Below the pieces are notes generated by a model that ran no database searches, was not told the DNA's origin, and worked only from the letters and a program-made list of their open reading frames with translations. Below, in pieces: positions 10,250 to 46,623 of a DNA stretch of 49,791 nucleotides. Source of the stretch: an uncultured Muribaculaceae bacterium (GTDB lineage: Bacteria > Bacillota_I > Bacilli_A > RF39 > UBA660); the NCBI GenBank assembly GCA_964465805.1, contig CAYXLG010000003.1, positions 1 to 49,791 on the forward strand, read 5' to 3'. The stretch's first letter is position 1. Each line of letters opens with the position of its first letter. The position numbers were made by a program, and so were the translations under genes.

Positions 10250-10378
10250 AATTGCTAAAAAAAACTTTAGACATAATAATGGTTATTTCAGACAAAAACA
10301 TACTAAAATGTAAAATTTTAATGTATTATGAAGGAAATTCGCAAACTATAGCGAATTATATTAGTAAGGAGGTGTAAA

Positions 10379-10828
10379 ATGGAAAAGTATGAGATTAGTC
10401 CTTCAACTATTGCAATTATTGCAATTGATGGTTATAAAAGTAAAATAATTGAAGATAATGATACTTTTATAGTTAATAGAACGACCCCAAAAATAATAGA
10501 TGACAGTTGTCGTTATTTTGGAAGTTCTTATTTAGGAAGATTTGAAGGGAGTAAAAATTTTTTGGGTGGTACTATATACAAATCACCAATTATTATTGAA
10601 GAGAGCCATGAAATTATTTTTTTACCTACAGGATCAGCACGTTCAAGTGATTGCTCGTGGATCTCTTTAAATAAGATTTCTCATTATAAGAAAAAAGACA
10701 ACCAAACAGAAATACATTTTAAAAACGGAACTTCTTTATTATTTCCGATGTCATATTCGTCATTTGAAAATCAGGTTTTACGAGCATCTAGATTAGAATC
10801 TATACTTAGACAAAGAAAATCTATATAA
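10379..10828 (+). CDS. comK: Competence transcription factor ComK family protein
   Basis: IIDDSCRYFGSSYLGR, FLPTGS...CSWIS and MSYSSFENQVLRAS align with recalled B. subtilis ComK segments (IVDRSCRFFGSSYAGR, FPTLS...CGWIS, ISYNSFENQVYRTA). A strong RBS, AAGGAGGTG, precedes the start. Confidence 0.88.
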   Translation: MEKYEISPSTIAIIAIDGYKSKIIEDNDTFIVNRTTPKIIDDSCRYFGSSYLGRFEGSKNFLGGTIYKSPIIIEESHEIIFLPTGSARSSDCSWISLNKISHYKKKDNQTEIHFKNGTSLLFPMSYSSFENQVLRASRLESILRQRKSI

Positions 10829-16625: not shown

Positions 16626-16731
16626 ATTGAAAAAACAATATAAATTGTAAAATATATTAAGAAAAAAACATTGTTTAATAAAAAAATAGATTAATTCTTG
16701 CTTTTTATTAAAAAATATTATATCATCTAAT

Positions 16732-16806
16732 AGACACAACATATATAATCGAACTAGGTCAGGATTGGAAGATAGCAGCCTTAAGATTCCCTATATGTGT
16801 GTGTCT
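16732..16806 (+). ncRNA. ffs: Signal recognition particle RNA, short (4.5S/scRNA-like) form
   Basis: Contains aGGTCAGGattGGAAgatAGCAGCC, the conserved SRP domain IV motif. It is closed by the helix agacacaacatata/tatatgtgtgtgtct and followed by a T7 run. Ends are approximate. Confidence 0.75.
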
Positions 16807-16836
16807 TTTTTTATGATAAAAAATGTGAGGTGTTTT

Positions 16837-29659: not shown

Positions 29660-29880
29660 TGTTTAAAGATTATGAAGGAAAGATAAATATTGTTGTTTTG
29701 GTAGAGACTTTGTGCTTGGTGAAAACAAAGAAAGCATAATATTTTAAATGGTTCTGGAATTGTTTGATCGATATGTAGATTAAGCCGTATTCATGCGTTA
29801 AATGGTTAAGTGTATAACATTTGTTATAAATTAAGGTGGTACCGCGTAATCACGTCCTTAAATTGGATGTGATTTTTTTA
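29660..29880 (+). promoter_or_regulatory. T-box riboswitch leader, probable Met (AUG) specifier
   Basis: T-box sequence aaattaaGGTGGTACCGCG at 29828-29846. Terminator atcacgtcc/ggatgtgat plus T6 at 29849-29879. Stem I has an AG bulge gtAGAGAc and a distal loop ttGGTGAAAa. The candidate specifier is taaATGg at 29748-29750. Confidence 0.8.
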
Positions 29881-41625: not shown

Positions 41626-41702
41626 GGGTGATTAGCTCAGTTGGTTAGAGCACCTGCCTTACAAGCAGGGGGTCGTAAGTTCGAGTCTTACATCGCCCAC
41701 CA
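41626..41702 (+). tRNA. tRNA-Val (anticodon TAC)
   Basis: Acceptor GGGTGAT/ATCGCCC, anticodon loop CTTACAA, T-loop GTTCGAGTC, encoded CCA. Confidence 0.9.
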
Positions 41703-41703
41703 T

Positions 41704-41780
<77 letters not shown>

Positions 41781-41786
41781 TTAGTT

Positions 41787-41870
41787 GGAGGGATAGCGAA
41801 GTGGTCAAACGCGGCAGACTGTAAATCTGTTCCTTCGGGTTCGATGGTTCAAATCCATCTCCCTCCACCA
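41787..41870 (+). tRNA. tRNA-Tyr (anticodon GTA)
   Basis: Acceptor GGAGGGA/TCCCTCC, anticodon loop CTGTAAA, long variable arm, encoded CCA. Confidence 0.9.
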
Positions 41871-41884
41871 TTAATATTTGACCT

Positions 41885-41959
41885 TGCCTCGTAGCCAAGC
41901 GGTAAGGCACCACACTTTGACTGTGGCATGCGCTAGTTCGAATCTAGCCGAGGCAGCCA
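41885..41959 (+). tRNA. tRNA-Gln (anticodon TTG)
   Basis: Acceptor TGCCTCG/CGAGGCA, anticodon loop CTTTGAC, encoded CCA. Confidence 0.88.
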
Positions 41960-41966
41960 TTTTTAT

Positions 41967-42042
41967 GTCCCGTTAGCTCAGTCGGTAGAGCATTTGACTT
42001 TTAATCAAAGGGTCACAAGTTCGATTCTTGTACGGGACACCA
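41967..42042 (+). tRNA. tRNA-Lys (anticodon TTT)
   Basis: Acceptor GTCCCGT/ACGGGAC, anticodon loop CTTTTAA, encoded CCA. Confidence 0.9.
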
Positions 42043-42051
42043 TTCTTTTTT

Positions 42052-42140
42052 GCCTGAGTGGCGGAACAGGTAGACGCACAGGACTTAAAATCCTGGGAGA
42101 CTCAAATCTCGTGCCGGTTCAATTCCGGCCTTAGGCACCA
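42052..42140 (+). tRNA. tRNA-Leu (anticodon TAA)
   Basis: Acceptor GCCTGAG/CTTAGGC, anticodon loop CTTAAAA, long variable arm, encoded CCA. Confidence 0.9.
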
Positions 42141-42169
42141 TTATAATTTTTAGATTAAATCTATATTAT

Positions 42170-42262
42170 GGAGAAATACCCAAGTCTGGTTGAAGGGGCC
42201 GGTCTTGAAAACCGGGAGGTCGGTAATACGGCGCGGGGGTTCGAATCCCTCTTTCTCCGCCA
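42170..42262 (+). tRNA. tRNA-Ser (anticodon TGA)
   Basis: Acceptor GGAGAAA/TTTCTCC, anticodon loop CTTGAAA, long variable arm, encoded CCA. Confidence 0.9.
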
Positions 42263-42280
42263 TAAAGATTTAATCAATAT

Positions 42281-42357
<77 letters not shown>

Positions 42358-42362
42358 TATTT

Positions 42363-42438
42363 GGTCCCGTGGTGTAGCGGTTAACATGTCTGCCTGTCAC
42401 GCAGAAGATCGCGAGTTCAATTCTCGTCGGGACCGCCA
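42363..42438 (+). tRNA. tRNA-Asp (anticodon GTC)
   Basis: Acceptor GGTCCCG/CGGGACC, anticodon loop CTGTCAC, encoded CCA. Confidence 0.9.
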
Positions 42439-42443
42439 TTGTT

Positions 42444-42519
<76 letters not shown>

Positions 42520-42541
42520 TTTTAAATATAAGATTTAATTT

Positions 42542-42618
42542 GCGCCCGTAGATCAATTGGATAGATCGTTTGACTACGGATCAAAAGGTTATGGGTTCGA
42601 CTCCTATCGGGCGCGCCA
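42542..42618 (+). tRNA. tRNA-Arg (anticodon ACG)
   Basis: Acceptor GCGCCCG/CGGGCGC, anticodon loop CTACGGA, encoded CCA. Confidence 0.9.
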
Positions 42619-42621
42619 TAC

Positions 42622-42698
42622 CGGGAAATAGCACAACTTGGTAGTGCACTTGGTTTGGGACCAAGGGGTTGCAGGTTCAAATCCTGTTTTCCCGACCA
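42622..42698 (+). tRNA. tRNA-Pro (anticodon TGG)
   Basis: Acceptor CGGGAAA/TTTCCCG, anticodon loop TTTGGGA, encoded CCA. Confidence 0.9.
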
Positions 42699-42701
42699 TC
42701 T

Positions 42702-42778
42702 GGGGAATTAGCTCAGTTGGCTAGAGCACCTGCCTTGCACGCAGGGGGTCAAGGGTTCAAGTCCCTTATTCTCCACCA
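42702..42778 (+). tRNA. tRNA-Ala (anticodon TGC)
   Basis: Acceptor GGGGAAT/ATTCTCC with the G3:U70 identity pair, anticodon loop CTTGCAC, encoded CCA. Confidence 0.9.
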
Positions 42779-42815
42779 TTAGAAAATTATCTCGTTTTTA
42801 CGAGTTAAAGCACAA

Positions 42816-42842
42816 AATCAACAAAAATTGTTGATTTTTTTC
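42816..42842 (+). terminator. Intrinsic terminator closing the tRNA array
   Basis: aatcaacaa-aaa-ttgttgatt hairpin plus a T run. Confidence 0.7.
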
Positions 42843-42882
42843 TTATTAATGATAAAAATAACCATTAATTTACTTTTTTTGC

Positions 42883-42910
42883 TTGACAGATGATAAAAAA
42901 TGTGTATAAT
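42883..42910 (+). promoter_or_regulatory. Near-consensus SigA promoter (TTGACA-16-TATAAT) of the 101-aa gene
   Basis: Hexamers at 42883-42888 and 42905-42910, read directly. Confidence 0.65.
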
Positions 42911-42938
42911 AAAAGTACTTTAAAGGGGGAATGTATAT

Positions 42939-43244
42939 ATGGCTGATATTCATATAAGTATGAAATTAAGTGATATTCTTAGGTCATTATGGAATGTCAA
43001 TGATAATCTTAAAAATTTAAATAGTAATCTTAAAAAAAATGATGGATCAGAAAAAGTTATCTTAGAATCTTTAAGTGAAGTGTTAAAATCAAATCAAAGA
43101 ATTGAAGAATTACTTATTGAACAAGTAGAATTAAAAAAATACGAACTAGGATTGCCAAGTAAAATTAATGGAATTTATAATAAAAACCGTTCAAATTTAG
43201 ATACAAATCATTCAAAAGGTAGAGTTATAAAAGGAAAAATATAA
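42939..43244 (+). CDS. Hypothetical 101-aa hydrophilic, predicted helical protein (no recognised family)
   Basis: ORF with a GGGGGA RBS, its own strong promoter and its own terminator. It has no TM segment or signal peptide. The C-terminus is Lys/Asn rich. Confidence 0.6.
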   Translation: MADIHISMKLSDILRSLWNVNDNLKNLNSNLKKNDGSEKVILESLSEVLKSNQRIEELLIEQVELKKYELGLPSKINGIYNKNRSNLDTNHSKGRVIKGKI

Positions 43245-43271
43245 AAAATCAGATAATTATCTGATTTTTTT
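43245..43271 (+). terminator. Intrinsic terminator (perfect palindrome aaaaatcagataattatctgattttt)
   Basis: Read directly. It lies immediately after the stop at 43244. Confidence 0.8.
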
Positions 43272-43377
43272 AATGATGTTAAATATAAATAATTTATATC
43301 AAAAATGGTTGCAATTTTTGCCGGACTATGTTAGCATAAAGTTAGTTTACGAGAAGCAAACATATAGAGGTGATGTA

Positions 43378-44085
43378 GTGATTAATTTTGTTTTATGTGA
43401 TGATAATAAGGAAATACTTGATAAAGTTAGTAATATTATTGATGAAGAAATGATGAAAAATCAAATAGTTTATAAAAAACATATGTTCAAAGACTATGAT
43501 TCCAAATTCATAAAATTAGTTAAGTCAAAATTATCTTGCCGAATATATATATTAGATATTGAAACGCCTAGCGCTTCTGGAATTGATATTGCTAGAATTA
43601 TCAGGGAAAAGGATGTGGAAAGTGTTATAATTTTTTTAACATCTCATGATGAACTTGGTTATACAGTTTTAAAAAATGAATTTATGTTTTTATCATTTAT
43701 TAACAAGTATGATAACTATCAAGATAACTTACGTAAGTCAATAAGAAAAGCGTTAGAAATTCTTGGTAAGAAACGAATTATTAGATTTGAAGATAGGGGA
43801 GCAATATACACAATACCAATTAATGATATTTTATATATTATTCGTGATAATATTGAGAGAAAAGTTGTTATAACCACAGATTATTCAAAATACAGCGTTA
43901 ATAAATCTTTAACTGAGATGTTAGAGTTATTAGGTGATGTTTTTAAACAAACACATCGTTCGTGTATTGTTAACATTAATCGAATAACAATTGTAAATGC
44001 TTCTAAAAGAAAAATTGTTTTTGATACTGGAGTAGAAATTGACTGGTTAAGTGCAAAATATAAAAACGAGGTAATTTTAAAATGA
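43378..44085 (+). CDS. agrA: LytTR-family response regulator (AgrA-like)
   Basis: Receiver domain (VLCDDN...YILDIETPSASGIDIA) plus a C-terminal LytTR domain (ILYI...VVITTD...HRSCIVNINRI). A GTG start at 43378 after AGAGGTGA gives 235 aa. The track start at 43273 abuts the upstream terminator and adds a non-receiver extension. Confidence 0.85.
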   Translation: MINFVLCDDNKEILDKVSNIIDEEMMKNQIVYKKHMFKDYDSKFIKLVKSKLSCRIYILDIETPSASGIDIARIIREKDVESVIIFLTSHDELGYTVLKNEFMFLSFINKYDNYQDNLRKSIRKALEILGKKRIIRFEDRGAIYTIPINDILYIIRDNIERKVVITTDYSKYSVNKSLTEMLELLGDVFKQTHRSCIVNINRITIVNASKRKIVFDTGVEIDWLSAKYKNEVILK

Positions 44086-45374
44086 TATTACTTATTAATA
44101 GTTTTATTTTTTCTCTAGCTTGCTTTTATGTTTCTTCTAAGATTTTTAAATTTAAAATAGATTATAAAAAAAAAGATTATTGGATTGTTGTATTTATTAA
44201 TACACTATTAATAACATTATCGTTTGTTATTACAACACACTTTTTAAGAGTTGTTTTTAATTATATTATTTTATTGATTTTAAACAAATATTACTTTAAC
44301 AAACCCTTTTTCGAATTAATGCTAGGTAGTTTTTTTACATTTGTAGTAATAACTGTTTCTGAAATATTTATGGCAATTATGTTAGTTAGTGTTTTCAAAA
44401 TAGAAATTACACAGTTATCAGAATCATATATTGGACAGTTTTATATAAATATTATTATATCAATTATTATGGTGTTGATTGTTAATGTACGTGAATCAGG
44501 CCGTTTTTTTAAAATTTTCTCCGATAATGTTAAAACAAAAGGACTTGAAGGAATTGCACCTTTAGTACTAATTATTATAGTTATATATGCTGCTCTTTTA
44601 TATTATATATATTATCAAATAAACGGAATTACAGTAATGATTTTAAGTGTTATTCTTATTACTATAATATGTGTTTTATTAATGACTGTTTTGAAAGAAA
44701 AAAATTATAGTGTTAACCTTAAAAAGGAATATGAGGAGTTAATTAGTAATTTAAATGAGTATGAAAAAGTACTGGAAAAGTACCGATTAACAAATCACGA
44801 GAACATTAATAATTTTATTATTATAAAAGGAATGCTAGAAAAAAATGAAAGCGATGTTGTAAAACAAATTGATGAAATTATTTGTAATAAGCAACAAGAT
44901 GATAATGAAATATTATTTAAGACAAAAAAATTGCCTACTGGTGGTCTCCAAGGTCTTGTTTATCAAAAAATGTTAATTATGAAAGAAAAAAATATTATAT
45001 GTAATTTAGAAATTAGTAAACATATTAATGCGAAAAAAATGAAAACATTAGAATCTGAGTTAAATAAAAAAATATGCACTATTGTGGGTATTTTTATTGA
45101 CAATGCTATTGAAGCTGTTGTTGACTTGAATAAAAAAAATGTTGGATTATATCTATATATGGAAAATAATGAATTGTGTTTTTCTATTTCAAATAATTTT
45201 TCTGGTATTATTAATTTAGATAAAATAGATAATATTGGATATTCAAGTAAAGGCAAAGGTAGGGGTTATGGCTTAGGTTTAGTAAAAAAAATAGTTGATA
45301 AGGATGAAAGGATAATAATTAAACGGGAAATTATTAGAGATTCATTTAAACAAATAATAAAAATAAAAATGTAG
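44082..45374 (+). CDS. agrC: AgrC-type (HPK10) membrane sensor histidine kinase
   Basis: About 6 N-terminal TM helices, H-box region RLTNHENINNF, N-box IFIDNAIEA and G-box GKGRGYGLGL. Its start overlaps the agrA stop by 4 nt (ATGA). Confidence 0.85.
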   Translation: MILLINSFIFSLACFYVSSKIFKFKIDYKKKDYWIVVFINTLLITLSFVITTHFLRVVFNYIILLILNKYYFNKPFFELMLGSFFTFVVITVSEIFMAIMLVSVFKIEITQLSESYIGQFYINIIISIIMVLIVNVRESGRFFKIFSDNVKTKGLEGIAPLVLIIIVIYAALLYYIYYQINGITVMILSVILITIICVLLMTVLKEKNYSVNLKKEYEELISNLNEYEKVLEKYRLTNHENINNFIIIKGMLEKNESDVVKQIDEIICNKQQDDNEILFKTKKLPTGGLQGLVYQKMLIMKEKNIICNLEISKHINAKKMKTLESELNKKICTIVGIFIDNAIEAVVDLNKKNVGLYLYMENNELCFSISNNFSGIINLDKIDNIGYSSKGKGRGYGLGLVKKIVDKDERIIIKREIIRDSFKQIIKIKM

Positions 45375-45389
45375 AATTTCTACATTTTT
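45365..45389. terminator. Bidirectional terminator shared by convergent agrC and agrD
   Basis: aaaaatgtaga-att-tctacattttt hairpin overlapping both stop codons. Confidence 0.7.
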
Positions 45390-45510
45390 ATTTTATTAAG
45401 TTTTCTGGCATTTCTGGTTCATCTAACCAAAGAAACATACATGCTGTACTAAAAGAATTTGCAGAAGCAAAGCCAATTAGACTCAAAACAAAAGCACCTA
45501 TTTTATTCAT
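45388..45510 (-). CDS. agrD: AgrD-type autoinducing-peptide precursor (40 aa), unannotated
   Basis: Codon-by-codon hand translation gives MNKIGAFVLSLIGFASANSFSTACMFLWLDEPEMPENLIK. GGAGG lies 5 nt upstream, and the start is 13 nt after the agrB stop. Layout is an amphipathic leader, Cys+4, then an acidic EP..P tail. Confidence 0.8.
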   Translation of the reverse strand: MNKIGAFVLSLIGFASANSFSTACMFLWLDEPEMPENLIK

Positions 45511-45523
45511 GTTAACCTCCTTT

Positions 45524-46114
45524 TTAATATAAATAATTATTATATGGTTGTTTAAATAAATAATAGCTAAGTGGGCTAATTAAGAAAGATTGGATAGTAA
45601 TTGCGCTAAATATAGCATTACTTATAAAATTATCATTAGTAGTAATTAAAATAAGCCCATATATAGCAATAATTAAAATGGAAATAAATTTATATATCAT
45701 TCTTCTTTTTAGACTAATAATAGGTCTTTTTTTTGTATCCGCAGGAGCACACTTTATAAAGATTAAAGTGCATATAGAAAATATAATGATTTTGGTCAGT
45801 TTTGAAATTGTTACAATGGTGCATAAATAAGCTGTACCAATAAAAATAGAGGCAGAAAGTATTAAACAACTTAAACTATTATTAGCGTGCGATCCAAAGG
45901 AAAACATTCTCAGAAAGTTATATAATATAACAATTATTAATAATTGTTTTAAAATGTTTAAAAGAAAAGCAATTATGAATATTATAACAGTTTTGGTAAC
46001 TGATATATAAATGCCTTCTAATCCATATCTTATTGTTTTTAGCTGTAGTTCCGAATACTCAGGATAAGATTTATTAATTAATTTTATTAAACTATCTAAC
46101 ACATATTTTTTCAT
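45524..46114 (-). CDS. agrB: AgrB-family membrane peptidase that processes the AIP precursor
   Basis: 196 aa and polytopic. FLRMFSFGSHANNSLSCLILS matches the AgrB catalytic His/Cys region (LR.fsGG.H......C). Basic loop KKRP. Confidence 0.85.
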   Translation of the reverse strand: MKKYVLDSLIKLINKSYPEYSELQLKTIRYGLEGIYISVTKTVIIFIIAFLLNILKQLLIIVILYNFLRMFSFGSHANNSLSCLILSASIFIGTAYLCTIVTISKLTKIIIFSICTLIFIKCAPADTKKRPIISLKRRMIYKFISILIIAIYGLILITTNDNFISNAIFSAITIQSFLISPLSYYLFKQPYNNYLY

Positions 46115-46142
46115 TACTAAATCACACCTTTATTTATTATAT

Positions 46143-46176
46143 AATGTGTTTAATTTTTTTTTAAGAATGTGTTTAA
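46143..46176 (-). promoter_or_regulatory. Two identical 11-bp direct repeats with a 12-bp spacer upstream of agrB; candidate LytTR (AgrA) binding site
   Basis: AATGTGTTTAA at 46143-46153 and 46166-46176 on the plus strand (TTAAACACATT in the agrB direction). The proximal copy abuts a TATAAT on the minus strand. Confidence 0.5.
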
Positions 46177-46410
46177 AAAAACTGTTTTGATGTCTGAAAT
46201 TACAAAAAACATCTTTTTTGATTAAAAAAATATATAATAGACGTTAAAAGACATACTTTAGACCATTTAATAAAAATTTATAATAAAACATAGTAGAATA
46301 TTTTTATTGCAAATAGAAAATGTCGAAATTTGACTTTCTTATTTTATTGATTATTATACCATTAATGAGGTATATTTGAATTGTAAGGAAACTAGAAGGG
46401 AGAGGTATTT

Positions 46411-46623
46411 GTGCGAGGTAAGGTTAAGTGGTTTAACAATGATAAAGGCTTTGGATTTATTGAATACAAAGAAGGCGAAGATATCTTTGTTCACTATTCC
46501 GCCATTTTGTCATCGGGCTACAAAACATTGGTTGAAGGACAATATGTTGAGTTTGAACTTGTTCGAACTGACAAAGGGTTACAAGCTAAAAATGTCATTG
46601 AAATAAAAACTGCTCTTGTTTAG
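46411..46623 (+). CDS. cspA: Cold-shock protein (CspA family)
   Basis: GTG start after GGGAGAGG. Contains RNP1 KGFGFI and RNP2 IFVHY. 70 aa. Confidence 0.92.
   Translation: MRGKVKWFNNDKGFGFIEYKEGEDIFVHYSAILSSGYKTLVEGQYVEFELVRTDKGLQAKNVIEIKTALV

Follow-up and report, generated by a model that had tools for sequence, protein, structure and literature searches.

Two questions are raised by the agr-type quorum-sensing module of contig CAYXLG010000003.1: is it an accessory element that was acquired beside a tRNA array, and which genes could it control? The contig belongs to an uncultured bacterium of the RF39 lineage, and the whole 49.8-kb stretch (~25% GC, replication origin included) is referred to as the window. 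The module comprises agrA, agrC, agrD and agrB and is followed by csp, hpf and secA. The explanation favoured here, likely but not secure, is a complete and intact agr system on the ancestral chromosome of an uncultured ~25% GC lineage, with a mechanism that involves agrBD, csp and comK. The parts of this explanation differ in strength. Judged from the sequence, it is very probable that the system is vertically inherited, functional-looking and organised in two convergent operons. That three promoters, located before agrBD, csp and comK, are targets of AgrA is a reading with slightly more in its favour than against it. Direct wiring of the agr pheromone to ComK via ComE-box-like AgrA sites, and to csp in the place of RNAIII, is proposed tentatively for this small-genome Bacilli clade and may well prove wrong.

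The agr genes and their products

The list of open reading frames (ORFs) and profile searches confirmed all four agr functions, AgrA, AgrC, AgrD and AgrB, at the places of the original prediction (Table 1). The agrA ORF as listed covers 43273-44085 (+). Its true start is most likely the GTG at 43378, because a Shine-Dalgarno sequence AGAGGTG is present at 43366-43372 and the orthologues have lengths of 233-235 amino acids (aa). The top NCBIfam model for the protein is AgrA, at a score far under the equivalog cut-off, and the top PDB match is ComE. In the alignment, D9, D60, T88 and K110 are kept in at least 95% of 21 orthologues. AgrC has hydrophobic segments across residues 1-208 and S. aureus AgrC as its best PDB matches. 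H239, the D340-N341 box (DNAI) and G395/G397 (GxG) are kept in at least 95% of the aligned orthologues. The protein reaches 48 bits with the staphylococcal equivalog model, which has a cut-off of 500, and, taken narrowly, is therefore not an orthologue of the staphylococcal protein. In AgrB, H76 and C83, 7 residues apart, and the motif PADT.K.PI are kept in at least 95% of 23 orthologues; the catalytic pair of S. aureus AgrB is numbered H77/C84. A PDB sequence search with AgrB gave no match.

The AgrD motif C-x5-DEPEMP is kept across 22 loci, with a variable core. The ring-forming Cys (Thr in two species) is located six residues ahead of the DE(P/A/V/S)..P tail in 21 of the 22 peptides and seven residues ahead in locus L028. 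The ring predicted for the window has six residues, CMFLWL, since the AgrB cut was assumed to be before the DE(P).. tail, as in S. aureus. CMFLWL and the flanking residues are identical in the window, L002, L004 and L006, although AgrB is only 51-61% identical. The predicted ring of L007, CIFLWL, has one change. Identity of the ring across species contrasts with staphylococci, in which the autoinducing peptide (AIP) diverges rapidly within species. The shared predicted ring of several sister species would allow signalling between species, and a synthetic version of the peptide could serve as a probe or help cultivation. The AgrD peptides of L033 and L031 have Thr or Ser at the ring position instead of Cys (..TATYWWVFDEP.., ..TYTSWFVFDEA..), which predicts lactone, not thiolactone, peptides.

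Convergent operons and the shared terminator

The predicted architecture also stood. The ORF list places agrA and agrC on the plus strand and agrB and agrD on the minus strand as two convergent units, the 4-nt overlap of agrA and agrC is genuine (ATGA at 44082-44085), and the common hairpin at 45365-45389 includes the stop codon of agrC (45372-45374) and reaches that of agrD (45388-45390). The interval first proposed, 42883-46176, holds the agr genes; its left portion, 42883-43275, is a separate small unit.

The hairpin is a 25-nt palindrome, AAAAATGTAGAA-T-TTCTACATTTTT. Its fold has -15.1 kcal/mol on each strand (z ~ -6), a value reached by 0 of 200 shuffles. Hairpins with an A-tract and a T-tract are located 3' of agrC in 21 of 22 related loci examined; the exception, L030, folds into no more than a weak stem, and a clear A-tract is missing. 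The stem sequence is alike in close relatives and changed in distant ones. These features point to a shared bidirectional terminator. A convergent agr layout already exists elsewhere in Firmicutes and is not special to the window. The Rfam scan of 42779-46410 found no RNAIII or other RNA, consistent with the earlier statement that no RNAIII-like RNA is recognisable. The single agrBDCA operon with a divergent RNAIII, which defines the staphylococcal type in the narrow sense, is not present.

The promoter block TTGCAAT..TTGGTAAAATATGGTAATAT lies upstream of agrA in most relatives. The matrix scan described below gave no LytTR box match there, and, being without LytTR boxes, the agrAC promoter is presumably basal or constitutive. 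The promoter block and the leader repeat (43309-43361; L002-L032) are conserved though AgrA is only 36-75% identical.

Inheritance of the locus

The original prediction suggested a lineage-specific acquisition at a tRNA-flanked site and named a comparison of this interval in relatives as the check. The scan for relatives was anchored on Hpf, with one genome per species, so that agr-less relatives were also caught. Genes were mapped in 28 in-lineage loci, 27 of them informative and one uninformative. The complete order agrA> agrC> <agrD <agrB csp> hpf> secA> is present in 16 loci, and two more are cut by a contig end and consistent with the block, which is thus found at the same place in 18 of the 27. 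Remnants of agr occur in two loci (agrBD only in L029; agrA and an agrC fragment in L019), and agr is absent at the hpf position in seven. Three further relatives, reached via AgrB, have the same arrangement by csp-hpf-secA on long contigs. The exact AgrB sequence was found in just one other, short assembly; AgrB homologues of 36-67% identity are numerous in metagenome-assembled genomes labelled Bacilli, Mollicutes or Tenericutes. With the block at csp-hpf-secA in most relatives, the suggested acquisition is largely refuted by the criterion that the original prediction itself had set.

A recently acquired accessory agr island at a tRNA-flanked integration site would fit the position of the module directly after the 13-tRNA array in the window and its closest relatives. 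The seven relatives without the module at this position show that it is dispensable. Among relatives whose SecA is only 65-89% identical, however, the block is fixed to csp-hpf-secA, while the upstream flank varies. Only the four closest relatives have the array adjoining the module, so that the tRNA flank, correctly described for the window, is incidental. AgrA divergence parallels SecA divergence: the identities of both proteins to the window correlate with a Spearman coefficient of 0.94 (n=17). The identities of AgrC and AgrB track SecA more loosely, as expected for hypervariable specificity genes. GC content is 0.22-0.24 within the module and ~0.25 around it. The ORF list and the repeat search agree with the earlier observation that integrase, transposase and a repeat of a tRNA 3' end are missing, and no att-like direct repeat of a tRNA 3' end was found. 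Phages gave no homologue, and the best plasmid match is 37% identical. Taken as marks of a tRNA-integrated island, integrase, repeat, compositional shift and phylogeny-independent patchiness are all lacking here. An island is accordingly considered very improbable. The module had also been regarded as the only segment of the window that departs from Bacillus-like synteny; comK, between dnaN and recF, departs from it too.

The remnants in L019 and L029 argue for ancestral presence and decay in place. From the distribution of the genes, agr appears to be ancestral on the chromosome, with several later losses. Could the window itself contain such a decaying or silent remnant? Its predicted AgrA boxes show more degeneracy than in sister species, agr is partially lost in the related L019 and L029, and the neighbouring orf101 is eroding. 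In contrast, none of the four ORFs is truncated, catalytic and phospho-transfer residues are preserved, ribosome-binding sites, promoters and terminator are intact, and the AgrD core is the same as in three sister species. Decay in the window genome is hence as hard to credit as an island, and an intact, inherited system is preferred. The agr module itself is ordinary, and its placement at a tRNA array is no sign of horizontal transfer. The uncultured lineage, whose only known sources are gut and digester metagenomes, has a conserved system for peptide signalling.

Individual loci show other states. L029 (1-3500) has unrelated genes at the place of agrAC, L019 (1500-3300) has agrA and a 60-aa agrC piece without agrBD, and L034 (5750-7180) has two tandem agrA paralogues.

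Predicted AgrA sites between agrB and csp

Between agrB and csp (46115-46410), 12-mers recur at a spacing of exactly 21 nt. Their reverse complement has the clade consensus ACATTTCAGACA, or, in the 9-bp form, ACATTTCAG with a 12-bp spacer. In sequence and orientation, the repeats agree with two published sites, the ComE box and the P2 site of AgrA. The ComE box is aCAnTTcaG-12-aCAgTTgaG, with the -10 another 31-32 nt on (PMC6001120). The AgrA P2 site of S. aureus is ACAGTTAAG..ACAGTTAGG, also given as TAACAGTTAAG..ACAGTTAGG (PMC8228455), and P2 and P3 are divergent AgrA-dependent promoters that share one intergenic region (PMC4227749). In the window, two box pairs are arranged back to back as divergent sites 30 nt apart, one towards agrBD and one towards csp. 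At all three window sites, including that of comK, 31-32 nt separate the 9-mer from the -10, as in Table 2 of PMC6001120. The geometry of a ComE-box or LytTR promoter, 9-12-9 with this -10 spacing and no good -35, is shared by these three predicted promoters.

The agrB-ward geometry is also present in L002, L004, L006 and L007 and, weaker, in ~5 further loci. The csp-ward pair is more widely conserved. Its core GTCTA-N16-GTCTA occurs once in the window (0.02 expected), the pair is conserved in alignment A1, and it is followed by a -10-like hexamer 29-31 nt on in ~18 of 23 loci. This recurrence suggests constraint and has no formal probability, the loci being related. The loci without agr at the hpf position (L012, L016, L017, L020, L021, L023 and L025) gave no good box pair.

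An initial matrix in the reverse orientation, TGTCTGAAATGT, gave crossed, overlapping promoters with the conserved pair driving agrBD. It was rejected because its reverse complement is the box published for ComE and AgrA and because the -10 is located at 29-31 nt on the csp-ward side in ~18 of 23 loci and far less consistently the other way. The comK site fixes the orientation of the boxes, since it has no other gene downstream.

Table 1. Features of the agr locus, its surroundings and the comK region in the window; promoter assignments are predictions.
Feature	Position	Strand	Description
comK promoter, predicted AgrA-dependent	10262..10329	+	repeats AAACTTTAGACA (10262-10273) and TTATTTCAGACA (10283-10294), 29 nt, -10 TATTAT (10324-10329)
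comK	10379..10828	+	competence transcription factor homologue, 149 aa, between dnaN and recF; Pfam ComK 1.3e-41, residues 1-147
small non-agr unit	42883..43275	+	promoter, 101-aa ORF and own hairpin terminator
agrAC promoter (predicted)	43309..43337	+	-35 TTGCAA, 17 nt, -10 TAGCAT
inverted repeat in agrA 5' leader	43345..43361	+	GTTTAC-N5-GCAAAC, present in most relatives
agrA	43378..44085	+	response regulator, REC and LytTR, 235 aa from GTG 43378; Pfam LytTR 1e-14 and Response_reg
agrC	44082..45374	+	histidine kinase, 430 aa, polytopic N-terminal sensor of ~205 aa, GHKL domain; HATPase_c_5 9e-10
bidirectional intrinsic terminator (putative)	45365..45389	both	A-tract, stem-loop, T-tract between convergent agrC and agrD
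agrD	45388..45510	-	40-aa pro-peptide MNKIGAFVLSLIGFASANSFSTACMFLWLDEPEMPENLIK; TIGR04223 at 30 bits, cut-off 19
agrB	45524..46114	-	membrane peptidase processing AgrD, 196 aa; Pfam AgrB 1.2e-30
agrBD promoter, predicted AgrA-dependent, P2-like	46136..46202	-	repeats TAATTTCAGACA (46202-46191) and TTTTTTTAAACA (46181-46170), 28 nt, -10 TATAAT (46141-46136)
csp-ward promoter, predicted AgrA-dependent, P3-like	46232..46299	+	repeats ATATAATAGACG (46232-46243) and ATACTTTAGACC (46253-46264), 29 nt, -10 TAGAAT (46294-46299)
csp	46411..46623	+	cold-shock domain protein; Pfam CSD 1e-26; candidate direct output of the csp-ward promoter

comK and csp as candidate outputs

The output of the system was called unknown in the original prediction; comK and csp are now candidates from predicted conserved sites. 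For comK, a box matrix was made from the agr-intergenic boxes of five species only and used with a spacing and a -10 requirement. The scan of the window gave three matches, compared with 0.7 per shuffled window. Two were the trained sites; the third, with the best score, is located 50 nt upstream of the comK ORF. Relatives retain both the gene and its position. The same matrix had its sole match in L036 and in L038, and the higher of two matches in L039, upstream of comK, with 0.05 expected per locus. A lineage-wide matrix, trained on the agrB-csp region only, found the same geometry before comK in L048, L049 and L050, three loci from a metagenome scan. In all seven near-clade comK promoters, the 21-nt spacing is exact and the -10 follows at 28-31 nt. 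L006 and L049 are part of the same contig of one genome, and its two comK boxes are the same, base for base, as its two agrB-ward ones. L039 and L004 are from one genome, and the comK boxes share the GC-starting flavour of that genome.

csp has a proximal promoter of its own (TTGATT 46347, TATATT 46371) and, upstream of the -35, a conserved palindrome, GTCGAAATTTGAC, at 46322-46334. Both promoter and palindrome are present also in agr-less relatives. The palindrome was considered as an AgrA half-site and rejected, as it occurs upstream of csp in relatives without agr. Between the predicted start of the csp-ward transcript (~46306) and csp, no terminator was found. The only hairpin on the 3' side of csp is weak, with a T-run; hpf has its own promoter-like site and is followed by a strong terminator. 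Possibly, hpf is under the same regulation as csp.

Several observations weigh against AgrA as the regulator at these sites. The intergenic pairs of the window are the weakest of the clade, with scores of 14-15 compared to 25-32 in L004/L006, and the agrB-ward pair is undetectable in about half of the agr-bearing relatives. The agrB-csp matches are partly circular, the matrices having been trained on this region, so that only the comK matches are independent. Related sequences are non-independent, and position statistics overstate the significance. In L009 (230-330), an orphan pair faces a terminator beside two csp copies; it is probably a relic of a deleted agr. Only the near clade, with a ComK identity of at least 74%, has the comK site, whereas comK genes of at most 71% identity lack the pair and have a different 10-bp tandem motif. 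The link to comK is a near-clade property, because the distant comK promoters are without a LytTR pair. The boxes are also missing from the comK promoter of OW818670.1. The sites could instead be bound by a different LytTR regulator, with its gene at another place in the genome. All of this evidence is sequence-derived, and the organism is uncultured.

These points feed an alternative in which the agr system is genuine and the repeat pairs are chance matches in AT-rich DNA or sites of another regulator, csp and comK not being targets. AT-rich sequence readily provides -10-like hexamers, which occupy 4.9% of positions in these regions, and for S. aureus an agr-competence connection is described as indirect or is disputed (PMC9072672, PMC10182052). 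Chance or a foreign regulator is at odds with the exact 21-nt spacing and the -10 at 28-31 nt in ~18 of 23 csp-ward and the seven near-clade comK promoters, and with comK matches from outside the training set. The boxes of comK and agrBD co-vary or coincide within one genome, and the geometry equals the published ComE box. This alternative is thus judged unlikely, though it deserves more weight than an island or a remnant, and AgrA remains the preferred regulator of the three promoters. The searchable literature gave neither a comK promoter with a reported AgrA site nor a direct AgrA-comK link, and nothing relevant joined RF39 and agr.

A second motif, of the AAATTCGACA type, was seen in three settings: the csp palindrome, an inverted repeat at comK and tandem arrays before distant comK genes. 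The comK inverted repeat, AATTCGC-N8-GCGAATT, is located at 10336-10357, just 3' of the comK -10. The 10-bp tandem arrays are found upstream of comK in L042, L051, L052, L059, L067, L092 and L124. The motif is similar to a LytTR box that lacks one base and appears to be a site for another regulator common to csp and comK.

Proposed mechanism

The mechanism has six steps, of which the first three derive from family membership and the other three from conserved cis-elements. Transcription of agrA-agrC from their own box-less promoter would supply basal amounts of sensor and regulator. AgrB, with the catalytic residues H76 and C83, would make a cyclic thiolactone with the predicted ring CMFLWL from AgrD, and the peptide would be exported. 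Outside, it would activate AgrC, and H239 would serve the phosphorylation of AgrA at D60. Phosphorylated AgrA may then bind the paired 9-bp repeats (ACATTTCAG, 12-bp spacer) 31-32 nt before the -10. One repeat-pair site would drive agrBD and close a positive feedback. The second, divergent site, 30 nt off, would drive transcription into csp, in a P2/P3-like layout with a protein-coding gene in the place of RNAIII. The third site would drive comK and tie cell density to competence.

If true, this wiring would explain the lasting linkage of agr and csp-hpf-secA throughout the lineage and would add a third coupling of peptide quorum sensing to natural transformation, with agr chemistry, a streptococcal promoter logic and a Bacillus-type master regulator. 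As an output, comK would tie density to DNA uptake and hence to gene flow in gut communities. Regulation of csp, possibly with hpf, which encodes a ribosome hibernation factor, would tie density to a stationary-phase programme.

Comparison with known systems

The locus has the four proteins of the S. aureus agrBDCA system with their key residues (AgrB His/Cys, AgrC H239, AgrA Asp, LytTR). Paired direct-repeat AgrA sites immediately upstream of a divergent promoter pair within a single intergenic region are known from S. aureus (PMC4227749, PMC8228455) and predicted here. Unlike the single agrBDCA transcript of S. aureus, two convergent operons, agrAC and agrBD, are present. The P3-like promoter faces a cold-shock gene, without an RNAIII in the Rfam scan. 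The predicted ring of 6 residues is a further difference, and the promoter-proximal repeat is centred near -47 instead of -60.

The map order agrA-agrC-agrD-agrB is shared with agr2 of Clostridioides difficile (PMC3754575); the searched literature gave no strand orientation for it. RefSeq plasmids of Clostridium estertheticum and C. tagluense are annotated with agrB> agrD> <kinase <LytTR regulator, the regulator being upstream of the kinase and overlapping it, and have exactly the convergent layout of this locus. AgrB is only 32-37% identical to the proteins of these C. difficile and plasmid loci. The clostridial loci are strain-variable or plasmid-borne, whereas the locus of the window is chromosomal with a fixed position across the lineage.

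In Clostridium acetobutylicum, signal production (agrBD) and signal response (agrCA) are likewise encoded by separate transcription units, the AIP ring is six-membered, RNAIII is missing and an adjacent gene acts as direct effector (PMC10301443, PMC12312760); here the effector is a candidate. Differences are the co-directional units of C. acetobutylicum, agrBD then agrCA, and its effector, a LanM-like protein that controls granulose and sporulation.

The promoter architecture is close to ComCDE of Streptococcus pneumoniae and S. mitis, where a LytTR regulator binds direct repeats of 9 bp that are 12 bp apart, 31-32 nt before the -10 (PMC6001120). The box consensus is near-identical, aCAnTTcaG compared to ACATTTCAG, and the output is competence, which is predicted here. 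The pheromone of ComCDE is linear and exported by ComAB, unlike the thiolactone expected from cyclisation by AgrB. The downstream master regulator there is the sigma factor ComX, here ComK.

Bacillus subtilis controls the competence regulator ComK by cell density through ComX-ComP-ComA and ComS. There, quorum sensing reaches ComK indirectly, via ComS and proteolysis by MecA/ClpCP. In contrast, the pheromone-responsive LytTR regulator of the window is predicted from the promoter boxes to act directly on comK.

Neighbouring genes and other features of the window

The GC skew of the window turns near 7 kb, and dnaA, dnaN, recF, gyrB and gyrA follow from 7584 on. The 13 tRNA genes are located at 41626-42778. 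Between this array and agrA, the small non-agr unit encodes orf101, a 101-aa ORF at 42939-43244 (+), behind a sigma-70 consensus promoter, TTGACA-16-TATAAT, at 42883-42910 (+). Profile searches gave no Pfam or NCBIfam match for orf101. A partial homologue is encoded in L007, and 13-aa traces are left in L002/L003; it is a young or eroding gene. A role of orf101 as a part of the agr system was rejected, as it has no family match and erodes in relatives. Its promoter region has no pair with ComE-box spacing on reading and none in the matrix scan.

The variable spot is the interval from the tRNA array to agrA, not the agr module. L004 (10900-13900) and L006 (10900-12600, both in locus coordinates) have additional genes in this interval: Ham1-like, WYL-domain regulator, acyltransferase and a 50-54-aa ORF. 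Rfam matches in the window are a T-box leader and a small SRP RNA (29663-29862 and 16728-16813), which are housekeeping elements unrelated to agr.

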